This document shows, piece after piece, positions 26,645 to 64,000 of a stretch of 64,000 nt of DNA; the stretch's first letter is position 1; every line of letters begins with the position of its first letter. Where the stretch lies: sequence record MT446408.1; one strand, given 5' to 3'. A program made the position numbers and the translations under genes. The notes under the pieces are model-generated. The model did not search any database and was not told the origin of the DNA. It saw nothing but the letters and a program-made list of their open reading frames with translations. The DNA comes from Escherichia virus TH35.

Positions 26645-26648
26645 ATGA

Positions 26649-28829: not shown

Positions 28830-28832
28830 AGT

Positions 28833-29249: not shown

Positions 29250-29250
29250 T

Positions 29251-50573: not shown

Positions 50574-50654
50574 TTCACTCAAGGCGCTGAAAAGCGCCTT
50601 TACTTTATGCGCAATTAAGTTATACTCATTATACGTTAACAAGTGAGGTGATTT

Positions 50655-50942
50655 ATGAAATTTGAAGATATTGATAAGGCTCAGAAAGCAAAGACTCTTC
50701 CAAAATACTTAATTTGCGGCATCGACCCTGCGGACAAGCGCCTTGTCTTTTTGAAAGCCGTCAAGGGTGATGAACATGGCAACGCAGTTGATTGGTGCAT
50801 CCCGCTCTTTGAGACAAAGGGAGAAGCCGAACAGGCATTGTTAGAAAGCAAGATGCCTTCGCATTACAAAGTCAGGACTCAAGATGAAATTCCAACCTTG
50901 ATTTTGGACAACATTAACAGCGGAGAAGGCTCTAATGGATAA
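50655..50942 (+). CDS. hypothetical protein (95 aa)
   Basis: ORF with GAGG RBS. Confidence 0.45.
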   Translation: MKFEDIDKAQKAKTLPKYLICGIDPADKRLVFLKAVKGDEHGNAVDWCIPLFETKGEAEQALLESKMPSHYKVRTQDEIPTLILDNINSGEGSNG

Positions 50943-51036
50943 AGAGGCACGACGCTTTGCATTTTGGGGCACGGTTTGTGTTGTCGCCCTGTTAGGAATT
51001 GTTTACGCAATAATTCATGCTGCTGCGGCATAAATC

Positions 51037-51432
51037 ATGATCATTGATATTGAAAAGGCGCTTAAGCGCGAACTGACGCCAGGTGCAACTCCTGGTGAAG
51101 AGGCTTATTACCGGCCCAAGCCGCAACGCACTAATGATATTCCGGTCTTCAAGCGTACAGTGAATAAAAACGGTCAGCGGTCGCGACCGCGCTCTATCCG
51201 GTCCGGTGAGAAGCTGAAAACGATTCGCCAGTGTCTACAACGACTCGAAATCATGGGTTGTCGCGCTTATATCGACCCTGATGGAAAGGTTCTGGTGAGA
51301 ATTGGCAATAGTACACATCTACAGGACGGATTGCCCTGCGGCGAATCCAGACCCATAGCCAAGACCGACCGTGTGGCTACTGGCCGCGAGATTGAGGAAA
51401 GTTGGTTGGGTGCTTTCTTATTAAAATATTGA
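51037..51432 (+). CDS. hypothetical basic protein (131 aa)
   Basis: ORF; Arg/Lys-rich. Confidence 0.45.
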   Translation: MIIDIEKALKRELTPGATPGEEAYYRPKPQRTNDIPVFKRTVNKNGQRSRPRSIRSGEKLKTIRQCLQRLEIMGCRAYIDPDGKVLVRIGNSTHLQDGLPCGESRPIAKTDRVATGREIEESWLGAFLLKY

Positions 51433-51439
51433 GGATTAT

Positions 51440-51688
51440 ATGAATCAAAATGAATCAGTAGCATTCTTACAATGGCTGGAAGGTGTGGTGGAGTATAACG
51501 CAGCAAACGACCGCTTCATCTTTCAAGGTAAAAGTTACAAGCGCAAAGGTCAAGCCCAGAAAGCTGCGCGCAAGTACTGGAAAGAAGTTTATTCAGAATT
51601 TTTCTCTCAGATGGGTATCGTCGGCGCTACTGTTCACGGCGACCCAGCACAATTGGTATCGATTGATGAATCCAATCGTCACAATTAA
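51440..51688 (+). CDS. hypothetical protein (82 aa)
   Basis: ORF with GAGGA RBS. Confidence 0.45.
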   Translation: MNQNESVAFLQWLEGVVEYNAANDRFIFQGKSYKRKGQAQKAARKYWKEVYSEFFSQMGIVGATVHGDPAQLVSIDESNRHN

Positions 51689-51761
51689 CAAACCGATTTG
51701 AATGCCGCGCCATGCGACTTTATTATAGTTATTGTTAATCACCCTCATGAAAGGTAATGAT

Positions 51762-52142
51762 ATGTCAAATAAGAATGATTCTATTCACAATACATATACT
51801 AAAGGCAGCGGAATGGCCTTTGGTGGCAGTATCAAAATTGACGTTCCATCTTGCGATTCTGATGGATTGGAAGTCGGCAACCGCGACTTAACATGGGTTT
51901 TACGTCGCCAATCTGATTTAGAAGAGAAGCTGGAAAATATTGAGCGTTCTCTCGAAAGTTTGCGCGATCAGCTTTTTGGTTGTTCTGAAGATGATTCACA
52001 ACCTGGACCATATGCAGCCAATCATGGTTTGATTGATAATATGCTTGCTATTACCGCTCGATCAATTGGTAAAACTGTGTCCATTGAATCATTGATCAGC
52101 CAGATTGCGGATGGCTTTGGTGATGCCCATAAGAGCGAATAG
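51762..52142 (+). CDS. hypothetical protein (126 aa)
   Basis: start at ATG 51762 after AAAGG RBS (track start 51732). Confidence 0.45.
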   Translation: MSNKNDSIHNTYTKGSGMAFGGSIKIDVPSCDSDGLEVGNRDLTWVLRRQSDLEEKLENIERSLESLRDQLFGCSEDDSQPGPYAANHGLIDNMLAITARSIGKTVSIESLISQIADGFGDAHKSE

Positions 52143-52212
52143 TGGGTGGATGTTGCTTTAACCGTGAATCGTGGGTCGCTGTGGCGGCCCTTTATTTTGC
52201 CTGCCGCGCAGG

Positions 52213-52325
52213 AGTGTACTGCAAATTTACTGTGGGCACAAAATAGTACGGTACTGTCTAGGACTTTTTCTTTGAAAAGTTAGTGGACCAAATGTGTCGT
52301 ATTTTGATTAGTGTACTGCAAATTT
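52213..52325. repeat. two copies of AGTGTACTGCAAATTT, variant of the ATAGTGCAAAT family
   Basis: identical 16-mers at 52213-52228 and 52310-52325. Confidence 0.6.
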
Positions 52326-52414
52326 CATCAAGTACCAAAACGCACCAAAAGACCCATGCCCTAAAAACCACACGAACGCAATAATCAATCGCCGTTACAG
52401 TTTCCAGCGTTACA

Positions 52415-52674
52415 ATTCGAAAGCGAATGATTCGATACACAATAATATGAAGCATAATGATTCGAAAGCGAATGATTGCGTGTAGTATAATATCGGTGGG
52501 GATTATTCTAGATGCATGTAATTTCGCATGCGTACTATTTTCGGACGAAGGGTCGGCATATTCCTCGTTTTAGTTCGGAACGAAGGGAAAGTTTTGCGCC
52601 TTTATAAAACAACGACTTACGCAACCCGCCCTAACGGTCCGATATAGGTGTCTATATAAAACAAGGACTTACGC
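52415..52674. repeat. short direct repeats in a non-coding stretch
   Basis: ATTCGAAAGCGAATGATT at 52415-52432 and 52460-52477; TATAAAACAA[C/G]GACTTACGC at 52603-52622 and 52655-52674; recurring CGAAGGG words. Confidence 0.5.
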
Positions 52675-52840
52675 GATGTTCTCCATTTAACGTAATACCC
52701 GTTATGCGAACTAAGGAGCATCTCGAAGAAGATTATGAGGCGACGAAGGGAAGGATAAAGGAGTTTTCGCGGAGAAGCGCATCGAGATAGGGACGAAGAA
52801 AAGCCGCGACTAAGCGCGGCCTATTAGTAACGGAAGGATA

Positions 52841-53131
52841 TTATAAGGAGACAATTTTAAAATAAGTTACTTCGCCGCCGAGTTGCGGTACAGCGATATA
52901 TTCGCCGCCGATTTCGGTAATCGTATAAACGAAGCCGTTAATCGTTACGCGATAGGATACGATGTCCTCGTCGCGATACTTGTAAAGGTCGAGGAAGTTG
53001 ATCGGCTCATAAATAGACTCGATAATCGCGTCGACGTTAGAGAGATAAACGCTCTCTAAGGTTTCGCCAAATACGTTAGAGTTTTCGGAAGTTTCGACGC
53101 GAGCGGAACGGATAGCGGCTAAAGTAATCAT
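52841..53131 (-). CDS. small protein, paralog family member A (96 aa)
   Basis: MITLAAIRS... similar in N-terminus and overall pattern to 53767-54051 and 53239-53541; AGGAG RBS. Confidence 0.5.
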   Translation of the reverse strand: MITLAAIRSARVETSENSNVFGETLESVYLSNVDAIIESIYEPINFLDLYKYRDEDIVSYRVTINGFVYTITEIGGEYIAVPQLGGEVTYFKIVSL

Positions 53132-53155
53132 AATAATCTCCTAGTTGGTCGGGCG

Positions 53156-53176
53156 GGTAGCGACCTATTCGCTACC
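53156..53176 (-). promoter_or_regulatory. conserved 5' UTR stem-loop (copy 1)
   Basis: on coding strand GGTAGCG-AATAGGT-CGCTACC preceded by GGGATGAG; same loop and architecture as copy at 53721-53741 with compensatory stem changes. Confidence 0.5.
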
Positions 53177-53198
53177 TCATCCCCTCTCGATATAAAAC

Positions 53199-53227
53199 AT
53201 TATAGTATTAGTGTACGAAGAAGTAAA
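53199..53227 (-). promoter_or_regulatory. sigma70-like promoter for 52841-53131
   Basis: reverse strand TTTACT (53227-53222) - 17 bp - TATAAT (53204-53199). Confidence 0.55.
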
Positions 53228-53238
53228 GCACTTTTTCG

Positions 53239-53541
53239 TTATTTTGCGATAAAATGTTTATAAGCTTTATCGCCTTCTACGTCGATATACTCGACGATAA
53301 TTAACGCTTCGTCGCGAGGCGTAACCGTCTCGATAAGGGTAACGGCTTCGTCGTCGGTCTTCGCGAAGCGGATGGCGCTACGTTCGGCGTATTTCATATC
53401 GTCGAAGGAAAGGCCGACGAAGGCGAACGCGCGGACCTTAATAGCGGTCCCGTCTAGTTCCGCGTTAACGGCTTTAAGAAGAGAAGCGACGGTTAAGCGG
53501 TCTTCGTCGTAAGTAAGGATAGAAGAGATTAAAGTGGTCAT
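53239..53541 (-). CDS. small protein, paralog family member B (100 aa)
   Basis: start set at ATG 53541 after GGGAG RBS (track start 53598 is TTG and overlaps the promoter); MTTLISSILTYDED... Confidence 0.45.
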   Translation of the reverse strand: MTTLISSILTYDEDRLTVASLLKAVNAELDGTAIKVRAFAFVGLSFDDMKYAERSAIRFAKTDDEAVTLIETVTPRDEALIIVEYIDVEGDKAYKHFIAK

Positions 53542-53597
53542 AATAAAACTCCCGATGCTAGTAGAAGGAAGGGCCATCGCCCGTCTCGATATAAACA

Positions 53598-53625
53598 AGT
53601 ATACGCGAGTGTACGAAGAAGTAAA
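53598..53625 (-). promoter_or_regulatory. sigma70-like promoter for 53239-53541
   Basis: reverse strand TTTACT (53625-53620) - 16 bp - TATACT (53603-53598); near-identical to promoter at 53199-53227. Confidence 0.5.
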
Positions 53626-53679
53626 GAAAAAAGATAAAATAATTTATCTCATTTTTATCGAAAAAGTGCTTTACTTTTT

Positions 53680-53707
53680 TCTACACTATATTATAATGTA
53701 CTCATAT
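53680..53707 (+). promoter_or_regulatory. sigma70-like promoter for 53767-54051
   Basis: TTTACT (53680-53685) - 16 bp - TATAAT (53702-53707); shares CTTTACTT...TACAC core with the two reverse promoters. Confidence 0.55.
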
Positions 53708-53710
53708 CGG

Positions 53711-53748
53711 GACGGGATGAGTTAACGAATAGGTCGTTAACGCCCGTC
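53711..53748 (+). promoter_or_regulatory. conserved 5' UTR stem-loop (copy 2)
   Basis: GACGGGATGAG-GTTAACG-AATAGGT-CGTTAAC-GCCCGTC immediately upstream of AGGAG RBS. Confidence 0.5.
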
Positions 53749-53766
53749 GAGAACTAGGAGTTTAAA

Positions 53767-54051
53767 ATGGCTATTCTTAACGTTTCTTCCATCCGTAACG
53801 CTATCGTCGAGAACTACGGCGTAAAACAAATTTTATCCGAAGTCTACGCCGCGAACGTAGACCAAACTATCGAGGCAGGTGGGGTAACGGTCGCCGAGGC
53901 TTTTAAACTTTACGCGGCGCTACCGGAATCGGACCGCGAAGCCTTCGAAGTAAACGTTAACGGATACTTCTTCGAAGCGGTCGAAATCGGTAACACCTTA
54001 CTCGTTATGGGCGAAGAAGAATTTGAGACCTTCTCCCTCGTCGAAGCGTAA
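53767..54051 (+). CDS. small protein, paralog family member C (94 aa)
   Basis: MAILNVSSIRNAIVE...; paralogous to 52841-53131 (shared NVD..IE, VNG.F, EIG, E.E.TF positions). Confidence 0.5.
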   Translation: MAILNVSSIRNAIVENYGVKQILSEVYAANVDQTIEAGGVTVAEAFKLYAALPESDREAFEVNVNGYFFEAVEIGNTLLVMGEEEFETFSLVEA

Positions 54052-54131
54052 GAGAGGATTTTTAGAGCGTCGTGCGCGACGCTTTAATAAAATTCTTTCG
54101 CGCCTAGCGCCCTAACAAATAGGAGTTTATT

Positions 54132-54758
54132 ATGGTTAGCTTAAATCGTTTCTCGACTAGCGGCGACGTTATCGCAACTAAGACCGCCGACCTCGTTGCA
54201 TTTTATAATGCAAATTCCGGTTCGAAGCCGATTAAGAAATTTTCGGACCGCCGGACCGCCGAGGCTCGCGTAATAGCGTTAATCGAGTCCTTAAACGCGC
54301 TCGATGAGCCGTCCAACGAATCGCCCATCCCAGACGCGAAGTCGCGCGAGGAAGTGCCCAGCGATGTAAAAACGCATAAGGCGCGTGCGGTCGTTAAAAA
54401 GTCCGAGCCGACCCAGGAAGAACTCGACGCGATGACCGACGAAGAGTATGAAGCCTTCGTTAAGAGCGGTTTAAACGATAGTGCAAATTGCGTAGTGCAA
54501 AATGGAACTCCTTCCCATCGCCGTTCAAATAGCGAAGGTATTGCGAAAAGTTGGGATAACAAGGAAGTGGCGCAAAAGCGTCTCACGCGTAACGGCGTTA
54601 TGGTCGAGGGTGTAGGCGAGTTCAAATCGGTCCGCGTAGCGTTTGCTGCGCTGGGCTTACCGGATAGCAAGCACATTCGCTTCCGCATGAAGCTTAAAGA
54701 AGCTGGACGATTGAACTTTGAGTTCGGCAACAAGTCCTACACCTTCCAGATCATCTAA
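54132..54758 (+). CDS. hypothetical protein (208 aa)
   Basis: ORF with AGGAG RBS; hairpin at 54064-54081 upstream; contains first ATAGTGCAAAT copies. Confidence 0.5.
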   Translation: MVSLNRFSTSGDVIATKTADLVAFYNANSGSKPIKKFSDRRTAEARVIALIESLNALDEPSNESPIPDAKSREEVPSDVKTHKARAVVKKSEPTQEELDAMTDEEYEAFVKSGLNDSANCVVQNGTPSHRRSNSEGIAKSWDNKEVAQKRLTRNGVMVEGVGEFKSVRVAFAALGLPDSKHIRFRMKLKEAGRLNFEFGNKSYTFQII

Positions 54759-54808
54759 TCGAATGGCGGCCCTTCGGGGTCGCTTTTCATAGTGCAAATT
54801 GGTGGCTT

Positions 54809-55072
54809 ATGAATACGCTTATTCTTATCGCTACGTTGTCCATCGGAAGTGGTCGCACCTTATCCCTTTATGATCATAGTGCAAATTGCGCTTACCCAAC
54901 GCGCGTTGCGGTGATAGTTAATAGTGCAAATCGAATGCTATTCGAGACTTGTTGGCGGGTCGATAACGAGAAAGGTCGGGTAGTCTTAGGTTATAGTGCA
55001 AATCTGCTGGTGGAGTCGTTCGATTGGACGGTTGAAGGCCGTAAATTGTTACGGAAAGTGACTAAAAGATGA
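54809..55072 (+). CDS. doubtful ORF spanning three in-phase repeat copies
   Basis: 87-aa ORF whose HSANCA, NSANRM and YSANLL segments are each encoded by an ATAGTGCAAAT copy; may be non-coding. Confidence 0.3.
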   Translation: MNTLILIATLSIGSGRTLSLYDHSANCAYPTRVAVIVNSANRMLFETCWRVDNEKGRVVLGYSANLLVESFDWTVEGRKLLRKVTKR

Positions 55073-55133
55073 CTTATAATAATACACTTTCTAACGCGTT
55101 TATGGTTGTAACCTTCCCCGTCGTATTACCGAT

Positions 55134-55173
55134 GGCCCTAGAAGTGGAGAAAATGTGTTCTAGGGCCGTTTTA
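55134..55173 (+). terminator. rho-independent terminator for the forward unit
   Basis: GGCCCTAGA (55134-55142) / TCTAGGGCC (55159-55167) 9-bp stem followed by GTTTTA. Confidence 0.5.
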
Positions 55174-55186
55174 TAGTGCAAATTGG

Positions 55187-55675
55187 CTAGTGGCGGGAGA
55201 ATTGCTCACCTTCTTTGGCCGCCTCTCCAAAATCCTTGTAGAAATCGTCCATAGAACGGCCCATTTTACTATTGCCGTTTTCATCAATCATCGTGATGCC
55301 GTAGATGATATTCAGTTCACGAATAGCATTAAGCTTGGCTGATGCCGCGACTTCTGGATCACGCACAAGCTTGACCAAATTGTGAATTGCACCTTTTACG
55401 CTCCACAAATCCTTTAGCGGCATTTCTTCCATACGCTTTTTGAAGCGCATTTTGTAGTACGGATTGCGTTGTGCGCAAAGGATTCGCTGGCCAGTGTAGT
55501 TATCCGTTGCAACTTCCATTCCAAATACTAGTGCAAAAGCTGCGCGCATGTCATGGCCCTGAATAACAAGGTCAATGAACTCATCGAATAAGGCCTGATT
55601 GTGCTCTGCAAATCGCGGGTCTTCAAAGTCTTCAGGCATCGCTACATAGTCTTGACTCATAGTGCAAAATCCCAT
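55187..55675 (-). CDS. hypothetical protein (162 aa)
   Basis: ORF; start codon region itself formed by two ATAGTGCAAA copies (reverse strand ATGGGATTTTGCACTATG). Confidence 0.5.
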   Translation of the reverse strand: MGFCTMSQDYVAMPEDFEDPRFAEHNQALFDEFIDLVIQGHDMRAAFALVFGMEVATDNYTGQRILCAQRNPYYKMRFKKRMEEMPLKDLWSVKGAIHNLVKLVRDPEVAASAKLNAIRELNIIYGITMIDENGNSKMGRSMDDFYKDFGEAAKEGEQFSRH

Positions 55676-55889
55676 AGTGCAAATTAATAGTGTGAATTAT
55701 ACAATGGATGAACATTATATTCAAGTGCAGATTGATGTTCATTATGGCTATAAACGTACACAAATCATATTGCGGAATGAATAGCGGACCGTGGTGCGTG
55801 GTGTACTGTTTGATACGTATAAAAGAAATCCATCCCTTTCGCCGCTTGTTATGCAAATCAATGACTTAGCCGCTGCTGGCTGGTTTAAG

Positions 55890-56230
55890 CGTATCATGAC
55901 GTATCATCCGTATTGCCGCAAGTCTTTGTTTTTACTTATATCTTACGGATAATACGTATAAATATAAGTTTAGTATAAGTATGAGGATATGAAAAAAATT
56001 AATTTAAATGTTTTTAAAATGGAGTTTATTTATTTTTGGAGTTTTATATATAACGATGCCCAGTTTTATCCGTATCATCCGTAAGATTAATGTACAAGCC
56101 AGGCGCGGCAAGGGCTGTACACTGATACGGATAAAAAAACATGACGTATCATGACGTAAGGGTGTACCACTTTGGAAAAGAGGAATCCAGGAACGGTGCG
56201 GCCTGCAGCCATGATACGCTTAAATTTTAG
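55890..56230. repeat. second iteron-like region, related to 39660-39930
   Basis: GTATCATGACGTATCATCCGTAT 55891-55913; AT-rich core 55960-56060; TTTTATCCGTATCATCCGTAAGATT 56064-56088 shares 21-mer ATCCGTATCATCCGTAAGATT with 39864-39890; GATACGGAT 56124-56132. Confidence 0.6.
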
Positions 56231-56490
56231 CCGTATTTTAGGCGTATCAAATGTGTGCAAACAACACGTTTCACGACACTAAAATTTCAATCCATAGATA
56301 ATTCCTAACAAACACCACGGACCAATAGACACGATCTATGAAATATATTTCTAAATATTTCCGCACAATTAATAAATAAAACACAACCTCATAATTATTC
56401 CATCGCAAAACACGACCCAAACGACAAAAGGCCGCATAAAGCGACCCATTGCACACATTCCATTCTTCAAAACACACAAATCAATGTTCT

Positions 56491-57027
56491 TTATCCGCTG
56501 ACCTTCCAGTCACCATTCCTTTTATCACGCTTCTTTAACTCCGTTTTAATGACATTATTATCCACAATAACTCCTAAACGGCGCAATTCACACATGACCT
56601 TGTGGCGATATTGTCGAAGCTTTTTGACGTCCATTGTGCTCCTTGAATAAGATAGTACCATAAAAATAATATCATCATTCATTTTGTAACGCATACAAGT
56701 TTTATAATGCCTTTTGAAAATTGCATTTACGGCATCTGTTTTCAGCAATTCATCCATTAATTCTGGATTCCCTTCACAGACGTTAATGACCCATTCATCC
56801 CTTGATTTTGCCGCTTTCAATCCCCTTAGAGTTAATAACTCATATAATGCCTTTCTGCACTTAGAGCAATCACCAATTGTCAAACTTGATTCCATTTCTT
56901 GAGCATCGGTCAACTCTGTATTGCCTTTGTTGAATTTACCGCACAAGCTGATTTGCTCGCCGTTGTCAAAGTAGTGGGCAAGTTTTGAGTATCGCGGCTT
57001 GCCCCATCCTGCAACGTTACCCATCAC
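56491..57027 (-). CDS. hypothetical Cys-rich protein (178 aa)
   Basis: ORF with paired-Cys motifs CGKFNKG...CSKCRK. Confidence 0.5.
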   Translation of the reverse strand: MMGNVAGWGKPRYSKLAHYFDNGEQISLCGKFNKGNTELTDAQEMESSLTIGDCSKCRKALYELLTLRGLKAAKSRDEWVINVCEGNPELMDELLKTDAVNAIFKRHYKTCMRYKMNDDIIFMVLSYSRSTMDVKKLRQYRHKVMCELRRLGVIVDNNVIKTELKKRDKRNGDWKVSG

Positions 57028-57449
57028 CCCTCCTTAACGACCCGATAAGCAACAATCTTTGCACCAGTCGGGCTTGTGACTTTATCCCATGTCAAACTAT
57101 CCGAAGGAACGGCCTCTTTTGATTTATAACCGTTGAGTAATTCAAACTCAACCATCTTCCCAGGCACCGGATTCGCGCCACCAAACCACACGATCCACAT
57201 TTCCTCCTTCGGCGCATCATCATCCACGCCTATAGTAGCAACAACGTCATGCAACTGCTTAACAAGCGCTGACGCATCACGGACCTGTGAGCGTAATGCG
57301 ACCAACTCGCGTTGCGCTTCACTATATTTCGCTTCCAGCGCGGCATAGTCCTCATATGCAACAAAACGTCCTTCGTGACTTTCTGGAACAGGAGTGATGT
57401 CGAAATCTTCTGTCGCCACATCGTATGTCAGGTCATAACGTTGTATCAT
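57024..57449 (-). CDS. hypothetical protein with shared NPVPGK C-terminal domain (141 aa)
   Basis: C-terminus MWIVWFGGANPVPGKMVEF...AYRVVKEG paralogous to C-terminus of 58333-58842. Confidence 0.5.
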   Translation of the reverse strand: MIQRYDLTYDVATEDFDITPVPESHEGRFVAYEDYAALEAKYSEAQRELVALRSQVRDASALVKQLHDVVATIGVDDDAPKEEMWIVWFGGANPVPGKMVEFELLNGYKSKEAVPSDSLTWDKVTSPTGAKIVAYRVVKEG

Positions 57450-57666
57450 TTAACTTCTCCAAAATTTCAATAGCGATTTGCGTTTTCTTCTCAAGAGCTA
57501 GACGCAGCATATCAATTTGCAAGTCACGATGGGCCAGTTCAGCGGCAATGTCCGACTTGCTGTAAAGACCTTCATGCGTCATGGCATAGATGTGGCGCGT
57601 ATAATAGCCGCCCTCGTCGAGTTGCTCGATGTCACGCTGCCCGACTGCGTATTGTTTATCGGTCAT
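57433..57666 (-). CDS. hypothetical protein (77 aa)
   Basis: ORF in tightly packed early-type operon. Confidence 0.45.
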   Translation of the reverse strand: MTDKQYAVGQRDIEQLDEGGYYTRHIYAMTHEGLYSKSDIAAELAHRDLQIDMLRLALEKKTQIAIEILEKLNDTTL

Positions 57667-57995
57667 GATGCATCCTTAGTTGGATAGAATTTAGGGTTGT
57701 TCTTATAGAACGCCTTGAGCCATGCCTTTGCTTCAGCAATGCTGCTGAACTCTTCTTTGGAGAGTCCGGTGCGGTCCTCACCTGCGACCTTGAAATGGAT
57801 GCGCACCTTGAGCCGAAGGTTGGTTGCTCTCGCGTAGTGGCCTTCATAGCCGTCATGATTAAGACTTACTATCGCGGCGAGCATCTCGCAGTCTTCTTTA
57901 TCGGGATTGCCGCTGTAACAAATCGGCCAGCCACGACGTTGGAATGACCTGTATTGGCCTGTCGGCTCAGGGTCCACATACCATTTCAATTTCAT
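57663..57995 (-). CDS. hypothetical protein (110 aa)
   Basis: ORF, ATGA-coupled. Confidence 0.45.
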   Translation of the reverse strand: MKLKWYVDPEPTGQYRSFQRRGWPICYSGNPDKEDCEMLAAIVSLNHDGYEGHYARATNLRLKVRIHFKVAGEDRTGLSKEEFSSIAEAKAWLKAFYKNNPKFYPTKDAS

Positions 57996-58333
57996 TCAAC
58001 CTTCTCCAATTGGAATCTTGTTTCTGGAAAACCTGCGACAAACATGTCACGGCCCTCGACATCACGCTTCACAAACCAACGCATTCCGCTGACTACCGTG
58101 AAGACAATTTGCCTTCCATCAATAATAAGTCCTTTTGCCTCATAAAGCAAATAGGTTTGACCGACCTTGAAGCTTGAAAGCTCTTTGCTTGCGCTGGTGC
58201 ACTTGAGCCGCCACTGGGTGAGATTGGATTCGCTTGCCTCGATGTCAACAACCTTACCGCGCAGCGGCGATGTGCGCTGAAGCTCTTGCATCTGCTCGTC
58301 GAAAGTTAGCTCACGACCTTCTTGCTCTTCCAT
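57992..58333 (-). CDS. hypothetical protein (113 aa)
   Basis: ORF, ATGA-coupled. Confidence 0.45.
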   Translation of the reverse strand: MEEQEGRELTFDEQMQELQRTSPLRGKVVDIEASESNLTQWRLKCTSASKELSSFKVGQTYLLYEAKGLIIDGRQIVFTVVSGMRWFVKRDVEGRDMFVAGFPETRFQLEKVE

Positions 58334-58842
58334 TATTCCTCCACGACTTTGTATTTGATGACATCGCCGTCGCGGTGGCGCTCAATCTTCTCCCAGCGCA
58401 ATTCATTTGATGCAATCGGCTTTGTCGCTGTAGCACCGTCGCGCAGCATGTAAAGCACCTTCTTTCCTGGTACTGGATTCAAGTCGCCGCCGTCCCAATC
58501 AATCCAGCCGTCATCTGTCGTTGACTTCTCCTTTAAGTGGTCGTACTTCTCACCGATGTGGGCGATTGGCTGGTTGCTTTTGTAAAAGAATCCAAGTGCA
58601 ACGTCGTAGCACGGGTGACTATGAGAAAGGCAAATGTCATCACACCAAAGCTCCATGGTGCGCGACTTAAGAGTCATCATATTAGTATACCACTCGATGG
58701 TGTAGTGGTCATTAAGGTTGCCGACAATATAGAAGTTGCGACAAAAGTGCGCGGCATCATCCGACTTCTCGCGGCTATAGCTTCTGATTGCGCCTGCCTT
58801 TACAGCCATTTCCAATACTGCTTCGAGTTGTTCGATTTTCAT
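58333..58842 (-). CDS. hypothetical protein with shared NPVPGK C-terminal domain (169 aa)
   Basis: C-terminus GWIDWDGGDLNPVPGKKVLY...KYKVVEE. Confidence 0.5.
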   Translation of the reverse strand: MKIEQLEAVLEMAVKAGAIRSYSREKSDDAAHFCRNFYIVGNLNDHYTIEWYTNMMTLKSRTMELWCDDICLSHSHPCYDVALGFFYKSNQPIAHIGEKYDHLKEKSTTDDGWIDWDGGDLNPVPGKKVLYMLRDGATATKPIASNELRWEKIERHRDGDVIKYKVVEE

Positions 58843-59006
58843 TGTTGTCTTCTCCTATTTATTTGATGGATGTTGTGTAAGAATATACCTTCTTGCGACG
58901 CTTTGCCTTGTAAAGACAACGGTCGCCGCTGCGGTTGTAGATGTTAAGCCAGGTACGCTTGCTAATCTTGTACGGCACATGCGGCTTTATGAATAGTAAA
59001 CGGGCT

Positions 59007-59303
59007 TTAAGGTTGGATGTCATAATAGTATTTTCCTTCTCTCATATTCTTTTTAATTCCTTGTAATGCCTCGCGCCCCTTCTTTGTCATCACCACAAAT
59101 GAATATAGTCTTGGGTCTTTTTCTCCTTGAACCGCCCAATCAACAAGCCCAAGGCGAAACAAAACAGGGATTGATGGTGCATTGACGTCATAAAACGGCG
59201 ATGGGCGCTTCTCATGAGCCTTCTTGCAATCGCCACGCAACATATATCGCGTCCCGTCTTCCATACGGTATAATGTTTGGACTTGTGCTAAACTTAGTTT
59301 CAT
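59007..59303 (-). CDS. hypothetical protein (98 aa)
   Basis: start set at ATG 59303 (ATGA overlap with upstream stop); track start 59318. Confidence 0.45.
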   Translation of the reverse strand: MKLSLAQVQTLYRMEDGTRYMLRGDCKKAHEKRPSPFYDVNAPSIPVLFRLGLVDWAVQGEKDPRLYSFVVMTKKGREALQGIKKNMREGKYYYDIQP

Positions 59304-59485
59304 TGCTGTCTTCTCCAAACTGCATGTAATGTTTTCTGGTCAAACTTGGACAGCGTTTCACGCTCCGAAGCCTTAAGGAAGCGCGTGCCAAAGAACAGCA
59401 TGCCTTGCGGCGTTTTAACGAGAGACACGCCTTTGTTACGGTAAAAGCTTACCATTGCTGAAGCGTTATGGACTTCGGTACTCAT
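59300..59485 (-). CDS. hypothetical protein (61 aa)
   Basis: ORF, ATGA-coupled. Confidence 0.4.
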   Translation of the reverse strand: MSTEVHNASAMVSFYRNKGVSLVKTPQGMLFFGTRFLKASERETLSKFDQKTLHAVWRRQQ

Positions 59486-59787
59486 AAATTCCCTCCAAAC
59501 GTTGCAACACGGATGGCGCGACGCTCAAATGCCAACATAGGATTAAGGCCGTCGGCACAAGTGATGAATGCATCATCAGCGACAAGGTCGTAACCGCCGA
59601 CGCAAAGAATAAATGTATCATCACTATTCTTTAATAGCATGATTGCCGCTACACCGTCCTTTTTATTCTTAAAGAAGAATACTGGCTCACCGCCTTCTTG
59701 AGTCTCCTTGAACTCTTTAATGGCACCACAGTTCACGGCTTCTTGCAAAGTGTTCAAAATCTTTTTCTTCATTGCTTCGGTACTCAT
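59482..59787 (-). CDS. hypothetical protein (101 aa)
   Basis: ORF, ATGA-coupled. Confidence 0.45.
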   Translation of the reverse strand: MSTEAMKKKILNTLQEAVNCGAIKEFKETQEGGEPVFFFKNKKDGVAAIMLLKNSDDTFILCVGGYDLVADDAFITCADGLNPMLAFERRAIRVATFGGNL

Positions 59788-60086
59788 AGCTCACCCTCTT
59801 TAAAAACAAATCCGCTGATAACAGATTGATAGTAGTTCACGCCGCGCACCTCTACAACCTTGCACCGATGAGCCTGACCCTTGTATTCTATCCACCAGAC
59901 TTCCATGTCAGGCAAGTTGTTGCGACGCGTCAACCAGCCGTGAAACAGCTTGTATGTTTCGCCGACCTTAAAAGGTTTCAGCGTACCGTAAGAATCAACC
60001 TTGAATGCGCAGACAACATCTTTGCTGTCTTTGTGTACAGCGTCATGAAATAATCCGCTTCTGCCAAACCTTTCGTCGTAACTCAT
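59784..60086 (-). CDS. hypothetical protein (100 aa)
   Basis: start set at ATG 60086 (MSYDERF...) 8 nt after AAGGAG; track start 60146. Confidence 0.45.
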   Translation of the reverse strand: MSYDERFGRSGLFHDAVHKDSKDVVCAFKVDSYGTLKPFKVGETYKLFHGWLTRRNNLPDMEVWWIEYKGQAHRCKVVEVRGVNYYQSVISGFVFKEGEL

Positions 60087-60133
60087 AATCATTTCTCCTT
60101 TGCTTGATGAACTAAGTATAATGCAGGCAAATA

Positions 60134-60163
60134 AAAAGGCAAGCATTTAGCTCACCTTTTTGA
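60134..60163 (-). terminator. rho-independent terminator (reverse strand), copy 1 of a duplicated element
   Basis: reverse transcript AGGUGAGC-UAAAU-GCUUGCCU (two G-U pairs) followed by UUUUU; identical 30-mer at 61663-61692. Confidence 0.5.
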
Positions 60164-60164
60164 A

Positions 60165-60425
60165 TTAAATATTCTTCGCCTCTTCGTGAAGGCCGACCGA
60201 CCTTAGTTTGCGCCGCAAGTAAGCTTTCTTTTCGCTCTCCCGCCCTTTCGGAGTAACGCGCCAGCGTAATGTGTTCTCCAGATTCTTGCGTCGGTTGTGC
60301 TCGTCGAGTAGCTCTACCAGTGCCTTTGCGTCGTCGAGTGTTAACACCACGGGCCGCGACCCATTAACGGCTTGTCGAAGCTTCCGCGCGGCAACGGCTA
60401 ACTTAGTCATCGGACCCTTGTTCAC
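60165..60425 (-). CDS. hypothetical basic protein (86 aa)
   Basis: ORF, ATGA-coupled. Confidence 0.45.
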   Translation of the reverse strand: MNKGPMTKLAVAARKLRQAVNGSRPVVLTLDDAKALVELLDEHNRRKNLENTLRWRVTPKGRESEKKAYLRRKLRSVGLHEEAKNI

Positions 60426-60805
60426 GGCAACTCCTTATTCATCGGTGTGATAGACAACACCTTCACTTCAGTGATGTCACGGTTGTATTCGCGCTTGATT
60501 TGTAGAATCTGAGATTGGATGCGCGCAATAAAGTGCGGCGTGATTCCTTCCTTAACGTTAATCCAAGCCGCAAGCTGAATTGAGTCGATGTCGCTTCTCA
60601 ATGTTGTTGGACAGTAAATCGTACTTGGTGCGCCGTAAGAACGTTGCACTTCATAAGCAGAAGCTTTGAATGACACCAAGAACATTCTTTCTTCAAGTTG
60701 GCTTTCGCTATTAGGATTCTTATCACAGTTAGTCATGTGCTGCACAAACTCTTCGTGTGGAAGGTGCATCACATCGTGGCAGTAAGGGCAACGCTTCATT
60801 CTCAT
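60422..60805 (-). CDS. putative zinc-finger protein, tandem paralog 1 (127 aa)
   Basis: N-terminus MKRCPYCHDVMHLPHEEFVQHMTNCDKNP (C-x2-C...H...C). Confidence 0.5.
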   Translation of the reverse strand: MRMKRCPYCHDVMHLPHEEFVQHMTNCDKNPNSESQLEERMFLVSFKASAYEVQRSYGAPSTIYCPTTLRSDIDSIQLAAWINVKEGITPHFIARIQSQILQIKREYNRDITEVKVLSITPMNKELP

Positions 60806-60806
60806 T

Positions 60807-61091
60807 TCACACCTCGTGCAAGAAAGATAAAGATTTAATGCAGACTATTTCTTTGCCAGACACTTCCTTGATTGTATCCAGCAGGCTTTCATACGCCTTT
60901 TTGGTGATCACCATTTCTTTCGTAGTGACGATGCCTGTTGCGCCTGAGCCGTCTTCTGCTTCCGCATGATAATGATAATAGTAACGTGTCGAGTTTTCAG
61001 GATTAGCATCACAAACGTTAACGTGATGTAAATATTCTTCAGCAGTAAGCCGCATCGTGGACAAGCAATGGGGACATCTTTGCATCTTCAT
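60807..61091 (-). CDS. putative zinc-finger protein, tandem paralog 2 (94 aa)
   Basis: N-terminus MQRCPHCLSTMRLTAEEYLHHVNVCDANP, same pattern as 60422-60805. Confidence 0.5.
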   Translation of the reverse strand: MKMQRCPHCLSTMRLTAEEYLHHVNVCDANPENSTRYYYHYHAEAEDGSGATGIVTTKEMVITKKAYESLLDTIKEVSGKEIVCIKSLSFLHEV

Positions 61092-61306
61092 TTTGCATAC
61101 TCCATAGCATATTGCTGCAGCTTGAATGCAGCATGTTGTAATTGTTTACGACGCTCATTCAATTCTTTCCATTCTTCTTCAGGACAATTTAGAGAGTATG
61201 CCTTGTTTGCAATCTTGATTAGTGATAAATGCGTTTGTTGAAAGCGCGATACCATGCGCAACTCATTACGCTTATTGAATGGCAACTTACCCAGCGCGGC
61301 GTTCAT
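61088..61306 (-). CDS. hypothetical protein (72 aa)
   Basis: start set at ATG 61306 (GAGGTG RBS, ATGA overlap); track start 61324. Confidence 0.45.
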   Translation of the reverse strand: MNAALGKLPFNKRNELRMVSRFQQTHLSLIKIANKAYSLNCPEEEWKELNERRKQLQHAAFKLQQYAMEYAK

Positions 61307-61620
61307 AATTGCACCTCGACACACGATTCACTAGCCTCGAAGCTCCAGCCTTCCAGACCGACTTCGCCGCAGTAACGCGCCATTGCACGCTCGTCCAAAA
61401 ACCAACCGTGATATTGCTCTATATACTTTGGTTTTTCCGAATAACAGTGAATGACTCCGTCGTCATCAATGGCCACGTAACGCGTGCCAGGAGCGACTGG
61501 GACAACAACGTCTGGGTGGGCGATTGGCCAAGGCTTGATGTGTACAGCTGTGTCCAACTTAACGTTTGGCACCCTTGAAAGGTCTTTGTAAGCACCCTCG
61601 TCCATTCCTAAGTAAATCAT
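61303..61620 (-). CDS. hypothetical protein (105 aa)
   Basis: ORF. Confidence 0.45.
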   Translation of the reverse strand: MIYLGMDEGAYKDLSRVPNVKLDTAVHIKPWPIAHPDVVVPVAPGTRYVAIDDDGVIHCYSEKPKYIEQYHGWFLDERAMARYCGEVGLEGWSFEASESCVEVQL

Positions 61621-61662
61621 GATTCACCTCACTTGTTAGTCTTGATGAAAAGAGTATAAGTA

Positions 61663-61692
61663 TTGATAAAAGAAAAGGCAAGCATTTAGCTC
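61663..61692 (-). terminator. rho-independent terminator (reverse strand), copy 2
   Basis: same 30-mer AAAAGGCAAGCATTTAGCTCACCTTTTTGA as 60134-60163. Confidence 0.5.
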
Positions 61693-61705
61693 ACCTTTTT
61701 GATAT

Positions 61706-62038
61706 TCATTTTACATAGTGGAGTAGGTCAATCTCTATCTGGTCACGCGTCCTTGTTATCTTTGTATCACCCGTCCGGTGAGAGAATCGATAGATGGTCA
61801 ACTCTCCGTCATTTCCTCTATCGAACTTCATGCTGGCTAGTCGACAAGCATATATTGCATTAAGCTTTTCGCCATAAGACAGAAGATTAAAAGTCAATAC
61901 TGTGTTGCCCATTCTTGCATTTTCTTTTATGCACTTCTTTAAGAAGTAATAAGAATCAGCAAAAGCATTGGCCTTCTTCCACACTTCTTTTATTAATCCA
62001 CGCTCATGCGCGACGAGTATCTGATCACGGGTCATCAC
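61706..62038 (-). CDS. hypothetical protein (110 aa)
   Basis: ORF. Confidence 0.45.
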   Translation of the reverse strand: MMTRDQILVAHERGLIKEVWKKANAFADSYYFLKKCIKENARMGNTVLTFNLLSYGEKLNAIYACRLASMKFDRGNDGELTIYRFSHRTGDTKITRTRDQIEIDLLHYVK

Positions 62039-62274
62039 TGCACCTCTGTTATTCCGGTAATTCGAACGATGACGGTGTCATCCAAATTGAACTGCTGCCG
62101 CGCGACGCGTTTGATGTCGTCCTTAAGGTCAGAAATCAACTCCCTTGTTAACACTGTACGCTCTGAAACGTCATATTGAACGTCAAAGGTATACTCGCCA
62201 TAGAATACCGCGCCATTCGGAAGTTGCACGACATAGAATGCCATATACATAGCGTTGATATAATCTTCCATCAT
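62035..62274 (-). CDS. hypothetical protein (79 aa)
   Basis: start set at ATG 62274 (ATGA overlap with upstream stop); track ORF extends to 62385 into the upstream gene. Confidence 0.4.
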   Translation of the reverse strand: MMEDYINAMYMAFYVVQLPNGAVFYGEYTFDVQYDVSERTVLTRELISDLKDDIKRVARQQFNLDDTVIVRITGITEVQ

Positions 62275-62618
62275 ACATTCTCCACGGGTCGACGGATGAG
62301 TTTGCGTAATCCTTCGGGCCATACCTTCTTGATCACGGCTTTCGCTGGGCTGGATGAAAGTTTCTTCAGCTTCAATAGGACACATCCTTCATCATCGTTC
62401 GGTTGTACCTGGATAACGACGCGCGCTTGTCGGTCGATGACCATGACATCGCCAATGCGAATGTCTTTTACCAACACGCCCATCTCCTTCGTGCCGGATA
62501 CGCCGTTGATGTGATCAAAACCTTTTCGCAGCGACTTCACTCTTTCTTCTCCTGCCATTTCTCTGACACGTTTCTTAATCTCTGCGCCAAACAACACTTC
62601 GTCTTTAACATGAGCCAT
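62271..62618 (-). CDS. hypothetical protein (115 aa)
   Basis: ORF. Confidence 0.45.
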   Translation of the reverse strand: MAHVKDEVLFGAEIKKRVREMAGEERVKSLRKGFDHINGVSGTKEMGVLVKDIRIGDVMVIDRQARVVIQVQPNDDEGCVLLKLKKLSSSPAKAVIKKVWPEGLRKLIRRPVENV

Positions 62619-63099
62619 GGTCGAGTACCTTATAAAGAGTGCAAGAAGGACTGTTGAATTCCCTTAATGCGTAAGCCACGTTCAAGCTGCCAGGTTCTTT
62701 CTTTGCGTTTGTCACTTCCATGTGTTGGCAGCCGTTTATACTGTATCGTCTTACTACAACAGCATTGAAAATCTGACTGCCGTAATAGACGCAGACGATA
62801 ACATCACCGACTTCTATTTTATCAGCCGGAACAGGCTTAAGGCGCGGCTTTTTATCAACATAAGTCTTGATAGGAGCTTGTACGCAACGAGATTGATGGT
62901 AAATAGGTCTTGTTGCACCCTTGACGTTGCGCTTCAGCAATTCATCAATGGCATAGTCAACATCATCACTTTCGAACTGCTTCATAATGAAGCCTCTTAC
63001 CTTTACGCGAAGTTTAACATCTGCTTCTGCACGTCTCAATGCGTGTAAAATTTCTTTAGCTTCTTCTTTCTTTAACATTAAAGGGCGATGGATGATCAT
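62605..63099 (-). CDS. hypothetical protein (164 aa)
   Basis: ORF with GAGG RBS. Confidence 0.5.
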   Translation of the reverse strand: MIIHRPLMLKKEEAKEILHALRRAEADVKLRVKVRGFIMKQFESDDVDYAIDELLKRNVKGATRPIYHQSRCVQAPIKTYVDKKPRLKPVPADKIEVGDVIVCVYYGSQIFNAVVVRRYSINGCQHMEVTNAKKEPGSLNVAYALREFNSPSCTLYKVLDHGSC

Positions 63100-63101
63100 A
63101 A

Positions 63102-63475: not shown

Positions 63476-63482
63476 CTTCAAC

Positions 63483-63967: not shown

Positions 63968-64000
63968 GGCTGAATCTACCCTCTGTCAATATCCGGTCGT

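Follow-up and report, generated by a model that had tools for sequence, protein, structure and literature searches.

A 2.3-kb block of genes in the direct terminal repeat (DTR) of Escherichia virus TH35, an E. coli phage of the genus Wifcevirus, is almost devoid of the dinucleotide CA/TG, and especially of the trinucleotides CAG/CTG (CWG). The most likely reason is that this DNA, inferred to carry early genes, is exposed to host restriction enzymes before the rest of the genome is protected, which would also explain a published puzzle concerning the restriction systems that stop these phages. We analysed a stretch of 64,000 nucleotides of the phage genome (record MT446408.1), referred to below as the window, following a preliminary description of a 2.2-kb island depleted in CAG/CTG and enriched in CpG. 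We found no description of this compositional island in the literature.

The observation made in the preliminary description was confirmed, and the effect is stronger than initially stated. Positions 52400 to 54600 (2,201 bp) contain 6 CAG (52405, 52891, 53876, 54331, 54359, and 54414) and no CTG, whereas about 70 CWG were expected from the 2,058 CWG of the whole window. The five CAG positions originally listed are correct, and 52405 is a sixth. The absence of CTG versus 6 CAG is due to chance, since relatives carry CTG as often as CAG. In the core of the island (52450 to 54300; 1,851 bp), CWG is 2, in comparison to 63±13 (minimum 32) in windows of equal size outside the terminal repeat, and CpG is 202, in comparison to 107±13 (maximum 150), with a CpG observed/expected ratio of 2.0 to 2.2. 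The existence of equally depleted windows elsewhere in the sequence had been set in advance as grounds for rejecting the observation. None was found: the island is the only such outlier in 64 kb (robust z down to -12.4 for CA/TG, +8.5 for CG, and +6.9 for TA). The longest CWG-free runs of the window (985, 486, and 455 bp) are consecutive inside the island, whereas the longest run elsewhere in the phage is 287 bp and the longest in 50 kb of E. coli K-12 is 217 bp. The comparison of codon usage, also proposed beforehand, confirmed the distinct codon set (Leu: TTA 13, CTC 9, CTT 9, CTG 1, and TTG 1; Gln: CAA 5 and CAG 2). The claim that repeats flank the island holds descriptively, with TACTGCAAAT at 52217 and 52314 and TAGTGCAAAT from 54206/54479 onward.

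CWG is only the extreme of a broader depletion, which the preliminary description did not identify. In the core, CA+TG is 70, in comparison to 272±15 in equal windows elsewhere (0.31x), and TpA is enriched 1.8x. All eight CA-containing trinucleotides are depleted (0.08 to 0.57), NCAG and TCA being the worst contexts and CWG the most depleted trinucleotide (0.03 to 0.08). Total pyrimidine-purine steps are conserved, which points to selection among synonymous transitions. The features of the region are as follows.

52300 to 56020 (no strand): DTR of about 3.7 kb; the left physical genome end maps to 56020, and the inner edge, which is the right physical end in the second copy, maps to about 52270 to 52350.
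52213 to 52449 (+): right-terminal segment of normal CA/TG composition, with two exact 16-bp repeats AGTGTACTGCAAATTT (52213 and 52310) straddling the DTR edge and a C+A-rich tract at 52330 to 52412.
52406 to 52493 (+): tandem 43-bp modules, each with a sigma-70-like promoter (TCGAAA-N18-AATAAT at 52417 to 52446 and TCGAAA-N18-TATAAT at 52462 to 52491), both reading into the island from the right terminus.
52450 to 54300 (no strand): core of the island; CA+TG is 3.8 per 100 bp (14 to 15 elsewhere), CWG is 2, CpG observed/expected is 2.14, and TpA observed/expected is 1.24 (against 0.66).
52495 to 52840 (+): non-coding leader with four GRACGAAGRG words and a 23-bp repeat pair; a terminator for the minus-strand genes lies at 52801 to 52822.
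52841 to 53131 (-): g96, encoding a 96-residue acidic protein (pI 4.2) of no known family, a paralogue of g94 (27% identity, E 1e-5).
53199 to 53227 (-): promoter copy 1, TTTACT-N17-TATAAT (10/12 to consensus); the -35 hexamer avoids TG and CA.
53239 to 53541 (-): g100, encoding a 100-residue acidic protein (pI 4.7); the mechanical ORF extends to a TTG at 53598, but relatives annotate 303 nt from the ATG, which has a GGGAG ribosome-binding site.
53598 to 53697 (no strand): divergent promoter pair, copy 2 (53598 to 53625, minus strand, TTTACT-N16-TATACT) and copy 3 (53670 to 53697, plus strand, TTTACT-N16-TATAAT), 96 to 100% identical even where the neighbouring genes are 54 to 65% identical.
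53767 to 54051 (+): g94, encoding a 94-residue very acidic protein (pI 4.05), absent from some relatives and replaced by a 54 to 65% identical allele in others.
54132 to 54758 (+): g208, encoding a 208-residue basic protein (PHROG 4730, function unknown); its 5' part is depleted and its 3' part is nearly normal.
54206 to 55684 (+): array of 11 TAGTGCAAAT-type motifs, all in one orientation, starting where the depletion starts to fade.
54301 to 54900 (no strand): decay zone, in which depletion fades gradually (CA+TG 10.3 per 100 bp) inside g208.
55187 to 55675 (-): small-terminase-like gene (annotation of the Mansfield record) in the outer, compositionally normal part of the DTR.

The DTR was located by comparison with related records. 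The WFC record carries both copies (3,784 bp, 100% identity), which map to window positions 52267 to 56020, and the Mansfield record has a PhageTerm-predicted DTR of 3,673 bp mapping to about 52348 to 56020. The 72-kb records show two places per record. The island fills the inner 2.3 kb of the repeat and starts about 100 to 150 bp from the right physical end, a position next to a DNA end that had been overlooked initially. The left edge is sharp and the right edge is gradual, a shape seen in all 12 relatives profiled.

As originally proposed, the bias acts at the DNA level and cannot be accounted for by codon preference. Depletion is equal for CA and TG in the sense strand of genes on both strands and is present in intergenic DNA, ruling out an RNA-level or translational cause. 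It is visible as context-dependent third-position choice (C before G 108:11 and T before A 49:11, against 42% and 40% elsewhere) and as a loss of Gln, His, Cys, and Trp. Recoding the same proteins with the codon usage of the genome gave 151±9 CA/TG, in comparison to 45 observed and a possible minimum of 15. A synonymous shuffle gave 65.8±5.4 CA/TG across codon boundaries, in comparison to 21 observed (z -8.2), whereas the rest of the genome shows an excess. The promoter -35 hexamers are TTTACT or TCGAAA rather than TTGACA. A polar gradient of CWG beyond the repeat was also considered: the ratio of CWG per CA|TG is 0.14 to 0.19 over 56 to 64 kb, against 0.21 on the other side, but this difference, although real, is confounded by codon usage, since off-frame CWG matches the shuffle expectation there.

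Comparison of relatives indicates that the bias is maintained by selection. All 16 relatives hold 3.3 to 5.1 CA+TG per 100 bp, including 54 to 65% identical alleles and extra cassettes. No CWG is fixed in the core; relatives carry 0 to 6 CWG there in either orientation, and sites turn over at low frequency. Transitions that create CA/TG are skewed to singletons (48/97 against 46/157, Fisher P = 0.0014), whereas the flanks gave no significant skew. The purge was not found in IMG/VR relatives with a g208 homologue at 36 to 43% identity, in Pbunavirus PB1, or in T7, and the first-step DNA of T5 has a different signature.

Searches of Pfam, PHROGs, PADLOC, and PDB sequences with the island proteins returned nothing beyond a PHROG of unknown function, and no anti-restriction homology or homologue of T5 A1, A2, or Dmp was detected. 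AlphaFold models were too poor to be used for searches (pLDDT 39 for the g208 product and 54 for the g94 product). The leader had no Rfam match and no excess of RNA structure (z 0.13), and no tRNA was found. Three copies of TTTACT-N16/17-TATAAT(TATACT) and a TCGAAA-N18-TATAAT promoter are each followed by an AGGAG ribosome-binding site and an ORF; these promoters are consensus matches only, expression data being absent.

Published plating data fit exposure of this DNA to restriction. The BASEL phages Bas98 to Bas100 have efficiencies of plating of about 0.3 to 1.5 on hosts producing EcoRI (19 sites), EcoRV (4 sites), EcoCFT_I, and EcoCFT_II (92 sites) but form no plaques on EcoP1_I (89 sites) (PMC11990801). 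We deduced that EcoCFT_II recognizes CACAG from exact site counts in two genomes. EcoRI, EcoRV, and CACAG sites do not occur in the island; among the 16 genomes, the island has 0 EcoRI and 0 EcoRV sites in 15 and 0 CACAG sites in 15. In contrast, the EcoP1I site, AGACC, which lacks CA/TG, occurs 3 to 6 times in the island of all 16 genomes in both orientations, as type III cleavage requires. This is a correlation between site maps and phenotypes rather than the result of site engineering. Among type III sites, EcoP15I CAGCAG, StyLTI CAGAG, and PstII CATCAG contain CAG, whereas AGACC does not (PMC3874151).

We propose that the island is a block of immediately expressed (pre-early) genes, with at least four strong host-type promoters, three small acidic proteins, and one basic protein, located directly inside one physical end of the virion DNA. 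We infer that this is the first DNA to be naked in the cell, as with the first-step-transfer DNA of T5 or the leading end of T7-like phages, and that a function made from it, or delayed entry, then protects the bulk of the genome from restriction. Since the leading DNA itself could not be protected, long-term purifying selection would have removed from it the sequences recognized by the nucleases met by this phage lineage. In this view, the strongest removal concerns CAG/CTG, the core of four of the five enterobacterial type III sites considered here (CAGCAG, CAGAG, and CATCAG, published, and CACAG, deduced here) and of PstI-, PvuII-, and EcoRII-type sites, followed by TCA/TGA and, more weakly, by all other CA/TG steps; replacement by transitions that keep the protein would mechanically double CpG and TpA. 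The analysis establishes the depletion, its DNA-level nature, its position in the repeat, its maintenance by selection, and the match to published restriction phenotypes, whereas early entry and expression, the end that enters first, and the identity of the selecting nucleases are inferred. We assign this explanation a probability of about 0.5.

The interpretation offered in the preliminary description was partly supported. Avoidance of CWG-containing nuclease sites is plausible and is now backed by the published phenotypes, although the target is CA/TG as a whole, whereas recent acquisition from a donor with the same bias was not supported.

Several results weigh against our explanation. No experiment shows which end enters first, that entry is staged, or that these genes are early, and entry was not followed here; the evidence is indirect, consisting of the sharp edge at the terminus with decay inward and the one-orientation repeat array. 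The EcoP1I match rests on one discriminating system, and EcoP1I might simply escape the protection of the phage for another reason. AGACC sites have not been purged from the island (6 against 3.1 expected), although P1-type systems occur in E. coli. Generic restriction avoidance is not seen, since 6-bp palindromes are as frequent as elsewhere (0.266 against 0.255) and TCGA (3x), CGCG (2.8x), and CTAG (7x) are enriched; only CA/TG-containing words are missing. A generic shrinking of the k-mer space to dodge any restriction enzyme was rejected, since the effect is small (5-mers present 0.775 against 0.902) and nil for palindromes. No known restriction repertoire obviously explains depletion of every CA/TG context, T5 and T7 face the same host species without showing such a purge, the outer 1.3 kb of the repeat is not depleted, and the island proteins have no detectable anti-restriction homology.

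The closest parallel is the first-step-transfer DNA of T5 in its 10.2-kb terminal repeat. In both phages, genes with strong host promoters, early in T5 and inferred to be so here, sit in a long direct terminal repeat at the DNA end, and a repeat array lies at the inner end of the exposed segment. The bulk genome of T5 is insensitive to EcoRI and CRISPR, whereas targets in the first-step DNA make it sensitive (10.1101/866236), the same logic as the EcoP1I versus EcoCFT_II/EcoRI pattern. T5 first-step DNA also has its own k-mer signature ending at the stop signal, but it consists of CpG and GCGC enrichment with AG/CT and GA/TC depletion, without a CA/TG or CWG purge. The segment is 2.3 kb here rather than 9.6 kb, there is no protein homology, and two-step entry is unproven for Wifcevirus. 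In Murciavirus, the leading region decides type I sensitivity: the position of a site, not its genome-wide count, is decisive, and protection of later DNA is attributed to early anti-restriction functions (PMC12455610). There, a single type I motif is lost, whereas here a whole dinucleotide class is purged; the T7 leading end shows no such bias. In T7, all 36 EcoP15I sites (CAGCAG) are in one orientation, revealing a phage genome shaped by a CAG-type type III enzyme (PMC3874151); T7 keeps and orients the sites, whereas here they are removed on both strands, only locally, and residual CWG show no orientation bias across relatives. Genome-wide avoidance of palindromic restriction sites in phages likewise involves under-representation of short words attributed to nucleases, but the effect described here is local, and palindromes built from CG and TA are enriched.

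The best-surviving alternative, which we consider possible but unlikely, is that the selecting agent is a single nuclease of very low specificity, cutting at or needing CA/TG steps (YCAG and TCA being the worst contexts), either made by the phage to shred host DNA or present as a core enzyme in most E. coli. The early module would have to survive while that nuclease acts, the solution proposed by Davison for the escape of T5 first-step DNA from A1-dependent host DNA degradation, which is still an open question. Depletion is not limited to known restriction cores, CWG occurs every ~21 bp in E. coli (48 per kb), so that such an enzyme would destroy host DNA, and the word usage of the island is anti-correlated with E. 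coli word frequency (Spearman -0.39 for 4-mers). The absence of the purge in T5 and T7 argues for a lineage-specific agent. However, the rest of the phage genome has normal or high CA/TG and CWG content (observed/expected 1.1 to 1.35) and would need separate protection, no nuclease was recognizable among the island proteins or in the annotations of relatives, and host DNA degradation was not reported for these phages in the papers examined. If this reading were true, Wifcevirus would deliver its DNA in two steps, like T5, with a 2- to 3-kb first-step segment evolutionarily recoded to be invisible to that enzyme. This would be self/non-self discrimination by dinucleotide content alone and would offer a worked answer to the question of how T5 first-step DNA survives host DNA destruction.

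Less likely, the island is shaped to avoid host DNA-binding proteins or spurious promoters. Many host motifs depend on TG/CA steps (the -35 TTGACA, the extended -10 TG, CRP TGTGA, LexA CTGT, the DnaA box, and the IHF site), and purging them would leave only the dedicated promoters active and no roadblocks on very heavily transcribed early genes. TTGA/TCAA is at 0.07 to 0.09, TGAC/GTCA at 0.11, CACA/TGTG at 0, and GTGA/TCAC at 0 to 0.08, the promoters use TG-free -35 hexamers, and strong promoters read the region in both directions. However, this hypothesis does not predict the restriction phenotypes, per-site selection on every CA/TG step is an indirect way to remove 6- to 20-bp motifs, TpA enrichment creates many -10-like words, and the early regions of T5 and T7 show nothing similar.

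A zone free of primase start sites is doubtful. E. coli DnaG starts primers at 5'-CTG-3', and without CTG on either strand the last 2 kb at the DNA end could not be primed, leaving a long single-stranded 3' tail of repeat sequence that would drive strand invasion and concatemer formation. The extreme depletion of CWG and the location of the island at a physical end, in a repeat that must recombine, are in favour of this possibility. However, it explains neither the depletion in non-CWG contexts nor the need for both strands, the phage primase is RepB-type with a VapE-like helicase rather than a DnaG-type trinucleotide reader, relatives carry CTG and CAG alike, and there is no link to the restriction data. 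Modification of phage DNA in a CA/TG-containing context, from which the island would be exempt, for instance to be read by host RNA polymerase, is improbable: no methyltransferase, DpdA, or hydroxymethylase-kinase module was found, the nucleotide-metabolism genes being ThyX, a PNKP-like protein, and an SDR reductase, and such a mark could not protect GAATTC or GATATC, although the phage resists EcoRI and EcoRV. Least likely is a passive relic, acquired from a biased donor or made by an odd mutational process, since, despite the variable gene content of the island among relatives and the lack of homologues of g94 and g96 outside the genus, the right edge is a gradient inside a gene whose distant homologues have normal composition, divergent alleles and extra cassettes keep the bias, CA/TG-creating variants are kept rare, no biased donor was found, and we know of no genome combining a CpG observed/expected ratio of about 2.1 with raised TpA.

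Our proposal provides a concrete and testable explanation for the unexplained observation that Wifcevirus phages ignore EcoRI and a type III system with 92 sites yet are completely blocked by EcoP1I with 89 sites. It predicts that the general anti-restriction function of the phage is to be sought among the three acidic proteins and the basic protein of the island, and it gives a simple sequence signature for finding leading ends and pre-early modules in other phages. For phage therapy and engineering, inserting payloads into this segment or recoding it could make the phage restriction sensitive, whereas removing a few AGACC sites might widen its host range. In this view, selection on first-exposed phage DNA can go far beyond the loss of single sites and purge a whole dinucleotide, reshaping codon choice, amino acid content, and promoter hexamers.

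The counts confirmed the trinucleotide depletion that the preliminary description had reported. Interval 52400-54600 contains 6 CAG and no CTG, whereas about 70 were expected from the 2,058 CWG present in the whole 64-kb window. A k-mer profile showing that equally depleted segments are common elsewhere had been named in advance as one result that would overturn the observation. In sliding 1-kb windows, the observed/expected ratio of CWG fell to 0.04 and that of CpG rose to 2.0 to 2.2 in this region, and nowhere else did the CWG ratio fall below 0.56. A robust scan of all ten dinucleotide classes identified the region as the only strong outlier in the window, with z scores down to −12.4 for CA/TG. 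The remark that the segment uses a distinct codon set (TTA, CTC, and CTT for Leu and CAA for Gln) was also correct.

Word counts in the core of the island (52450-54300, 1,851 bp) and in equal windows outside the repeat
CWG: core, 2; elsewhere, 63±13 (minimum, 32)
CpG: core, 202; elsewhere, 107±13 (maximum, 150)
TpA: core, 171; elsewhere, 88±13 (maximum, 132)
CA+TG: core, 70; elsewhere, 272±15 (minimum, 227)

The unit that is actually depleted is the dinucleotide CA/TG, which is present at 0.31 of its level in the rest of the window, whereas CG is at 1.9× and TA at 1.8×. The three purine-pyrimidine steps and all other classes are unchanged, and the total number of pyrimidine-purine steps is conserved, indicating that CA/TG has been replaced through transitions by CG or TA. 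All eight CA-containing trinucleotides are low, with ratios to the rest of the window of 0.08 for CAG/CTG, 0.20 for TCA/TGA, 0.27 for CAA/TTG, 0.32 for CCA/TGG, 0.33 for CAC/GTG, 0.35 for ACA/TGT, 0.41 for GCA/TGC, and 0.57 for ATG/CAT. In the core, CA followed by G is at 0.03, TCAG, CCAG, and TCAC are absent (0 against 15 to 17 expected each), TCAA is found twice against 32 expected, and CAT/ATG is the most spared. The proportion of CWG per CA|TG is 0.029 in the core against 0.22 to 0.25 in the rest of the genome; CWG is therefore depleted about 8-fold beyond the general loss of CA/TG. A mild local enrichment of the GC dinucleotide was also noted at 1001-2500 (observed/expected ratio of 1.65 to 1.75; robust z of 4.6 to 5.8), which covers the 3′ half of the Dda-like helicase gene and the start of the next open reading frame (ORF).

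The bias acts on DNA rather than on RNA or translation. In the sense strand of each of the four genes of the island, two on each strand, CA and TG are equally rare, and the intergenic DNA is depleted too. At codon boundaries, the third base depends upon the first base of the next codon, since C is chosen before G at 108:11 and T before A at 49:11, in comparison to 1116:1531 and 696:1049, respectively, in the rest of the genome. Shuffling synonymous codons within each gene gave 65.8±5.4 boundary CA/TG against 21 observed (z = −8.2), whereas other gene sets showed an excess. Recoding the same proteins with the codon usage of the genome gave 151±9 CA/TG against 45 observed, the minimum possible being 15. 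NTG and NCA codons are nearly unused, and amino acids whose codons must contain CA or TG are rare (Gln, 1.4% against 4.0%; His, 0.8% against 1.5%; Cys, 0.2% against 0.9%; Trp, 0.2% against 1.4%). Even the promoters use −35 hexamers devoid of TG.

The window belongs to a Wifcevirus, an E. coli/Shigella myovirus, and is 93 to 96% identical to phages WFC, Mansfield, and ECML-117 and to the BASEL isolates Bas98 to Bas101. Records that include both terminal repeats give a direct terminal repeat of 3,784 bp (WFC), and PhageTerm gives 3,673 bp (Mansfield). Both map to window ~52270/52350-56020, and the left physical end maps to 56020 in the WFC and Mansfield records; the ends of the repeat are taken from database records of relatives and not from this isolate. 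The island therefore occupies the inner 2.3 kb of the repeat and begins, in the right-hand copy, about 100 to 150 bp from the physical DNA end. Its edge there is sharp, with a decrease from about 30 to about 10 CA+TG per 200 bp within ~200 bp, whereas the other edge fades over ~700 bp inside the gene encoding the 208-residue protein. This shape is the same in all 12 relatives profiled. The outer 1.3 kb of the repeat, which carries the small-terminase-like gene, is compositionally normal.

Read from the right terminus inward, the following features were identified in and around the island.
52330-52412: C+A-rich 80-bp tract (A33 C26 G11 T13) right at the inner edge of the repeat, which is the right terminus
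52217 and 52314: two TACTGCAAAT motifs inside exact 16-bp repeats (AGTGTACTGCAAATTT) that straddle the inner edge of the repeat
52417-52491: two tandem promoter-like modules reading inward
Noncoding leader of 350 bp, with no Rfam match and no excess structure
52801-52822: terminator of the minus-strand genes
g96 and g100, minus strand: two genes, each with its own copy of a conserved promoter, TTTACT-N16/17-TATAAT(TATACT)
Divergent promoter region
g94 and g208, plus strand: two genes
54206-55684, plus strand: array of 11 TAGTGCAAAT motifs (0 to 1 mismatch), all in one orientation, in the outer half of the terminal repeat
55006-55013, plus strand: the only Chi site (GCTGGTGG) in the window, inside the 87-codon ORF 54809-55072, about 1 kb from the left physical end
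55800-56300: AT-rich zone (27 to 35% GC) with several nested inverted and direct repeats, surrounding the left terminus at 56020

All four genes have ribosome-binding sites of the AGGAG or GGGAG type. The g96, g100, and g94 products are acidic (pI 4.0 to 4.7), and that of g208 is basic. g94 and g96 are paralogues. None of the four proteins matched a family of known function in the searches performed, and the structure predictions were unusable. The TAGTGCAAAT array begins at 54206, where the depletion starts to fade. Together with the two TACTGCAAAT motifs, and with only one other hit in 64 kb, there are 14 matches against 6.6±2.4 expected. These motifs could be small-terminase binding sites or an injection-stop array like the one in T5; by our reading, their reverse complement matches the DnaA box at 7 of 9 positions. 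The C+A-rich tract and the AT-rich zone are both likely to be terminase or end-processing signals.

The 16 relatives examined all hold 3.3 to 5.1 CA+TG per 100 bp in the core. This holds despite the replacement of g96 and g94 in WFC, Bas98, and CWP003 by alleles that are only 54 to 65% identical, and also where relatives lack g94 or carry extra small ORFs. In the region aligned to window 52840-54130, gene content is mosaic: RCIP0363 and ECO71P1 carry an extra 153-bp ORF, Ro157lw and Eco4M-7 carry an extra 210-bp ORF, and g94 is missing in ECML-117, Ro157lw, Eco4M-7, and RCIP0319. The promoter modules stay nearly identical throughout, and the promoter region is 96 to 100% identical next to the divergent alleles. 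This organization is typical of an anti-defense or host-takeover hotspot. No CWG is fixed within the core, where CWG appears at 22 different positions, mostly in one to three genomes. Transitions that create CA/TG are skewed to singletons (48 of 97, in comparison to 46 of 157 for neutral transitions; Fisher P = 0.0014), with no skew in the flanks. Phages from metagenomes that encode a g208 homologue at 36 to 43% identity have a normal composition around it, as does Pbunavirus PB1, of the sister genus. Thus, the bias is made and maintained in place by selection in this genus and was not inherited from a donor. The interpretation offered in the preliminary description, selection or mutation at the DNA level or else recent acquisition from a biased donor, is therefore supported only for its first part.

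In order to identify the most likely mechanism, we compared the published raw plating data for Bas98 to Bas100 with the positions of the restriction sites.

Restriction sites in the Bas99 genome and efficiency of plating of Bas98 to Bas100
EcoRI: 19 sites; 0.3 to 0.9
EcoRV: 4 sites; about 1
EcoCFT_I: 3 sites; about 1
EcoCFT_II: 92 sites; 0.6 to 1.5
EcoP1_I: 89 sites; no plaques

The published site counts were reproduced for AGACC, GAATTC, and GATATC. The recognition sequence of EcoCFT_II was deduced from site counts to be CACAG, because this word gives exactly 92 sites in Bas99 and 51 in Bas01, as tabulated. Mapping revealed that the island has no EcoRI site in any of the 16 genomes and no EcoRV or CACAG site in 15 of the 16. 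In contrast, all 16 genomes carry 3 to 6 AGACC sites in the island, in both orientations, and type III enzymes need inversely oriented sites (PMC3874151). The repeat as a whole holds 5 to 7 AGACC sites. The simplest reading is the logic described for T5, in which EcoRI sites or CRISPR targets matter only in the first-step DNA (10.1101/866236). Similarly, a type I motif matters only in the leading region of Murciavirus (PMC12455610). In this view, the bulk of the genome would be protected by some early function or by delayed entry, and only the first-exposed DNA would be vulnerable. While the depletion, its DNA-level nature, its position, and its maintenance by selection rest on the sequence analyses, this mechanism is inferred: the link between restriction phenotype and site position is a correlation across six systems, with one decisive contrast, and "early" rests on promoter consensus only. 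Four of the five enterobacterial type III sites considered here contain CAG, namely, CAGCAG, CAGAG, CATCAG, and the deduced CACAG, and the exception, AGACC, is the one that stops these phages. The near-absolute loss of CWG therefore fits avoidance of CAG-core nucleases on exposed DNA.

The analysis did not settle which end enters first, since different observations favor each of them. In favor of the right end are the sharp edge of the island at the right terminus, with inward decay, and the lower CWG content of the side that would follow the repeat if this end were to enter first. There, the share of CA/TG steps that are CWG stays at 0.14 to 0.19 for 8 kb (56021-64000), against 0.21 immediately on the other side (50601-52299) and 0.22 to 0.25 in the rest of the genome. 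This difference is confounded by codon usage, as off-frame CWG equals the codon-shuffle expectation in that region, so that lower use of CTG and CAG codons by the small early genes may explain it. In favor of the left end are sigma-70-like promoters reading inward near that end and the Chi site, which is conserved in all 17 sequences and oriented to be read by RecBCD entering from that end.

Several features do not fit restriction avoidance. The purge of all other CA/TG contexts is not explained by any restriction repertoire that we can name. Generic avoidance is absent, since palindromes as a class are not reduced and CG/TA palindromes are enriched. AGACC has not been purged, and T5 and T7, on the same host species, show no such bias. 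A single nuclease of low specificity acting at CA/TG steps, whether made by the phage or a core enzyme of the host, is therefore not ruled out. This possibility echoes the unsolved question of how T5 first-step DNA survives A1-dependent degradation of host DNA, although the rest of the genome studied here has a normal CA/TG content and no nuclease is recognizable. Less support was found for avoidance of host DNA-binding motifs, for a primase-free zone, given that the phage primase is of the RepB type, and for a modification context, for which no genes were found. A passive relic likewise has less support.

Functionally, the island resembles the pre-early segment of T5 and the leading regions of T7-like phages, but it is not homologous to them, and its sequence signature is different in kind and degree. 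The T5 first-step-transfer DNA has a compositional signature of its own, as revealed by comparing positions 1 to 9500 with 10500 to 30000 of the T5 genome (NC_005859). In the former, the CpG observed/expected ratio is 1.34 against 0.79, GCGC is enriched 6.7×, CGCG is enriched 4.7×, AGAG/CTCT is at 0.19×, and AG/CT and GA/TC are depleted. The switch falls at about 9.5 to 10 kb, at the injection stop signal and repeat end. We know of no description of this T5 signature, and the literature search returned no published description of the Wifcevirus island. Restriction avoidance concentrated on first-exposed DNA is already known; what is new here is a purge at the level of a dinucleotide, which reaches into amino acid content and promoter hexamers.
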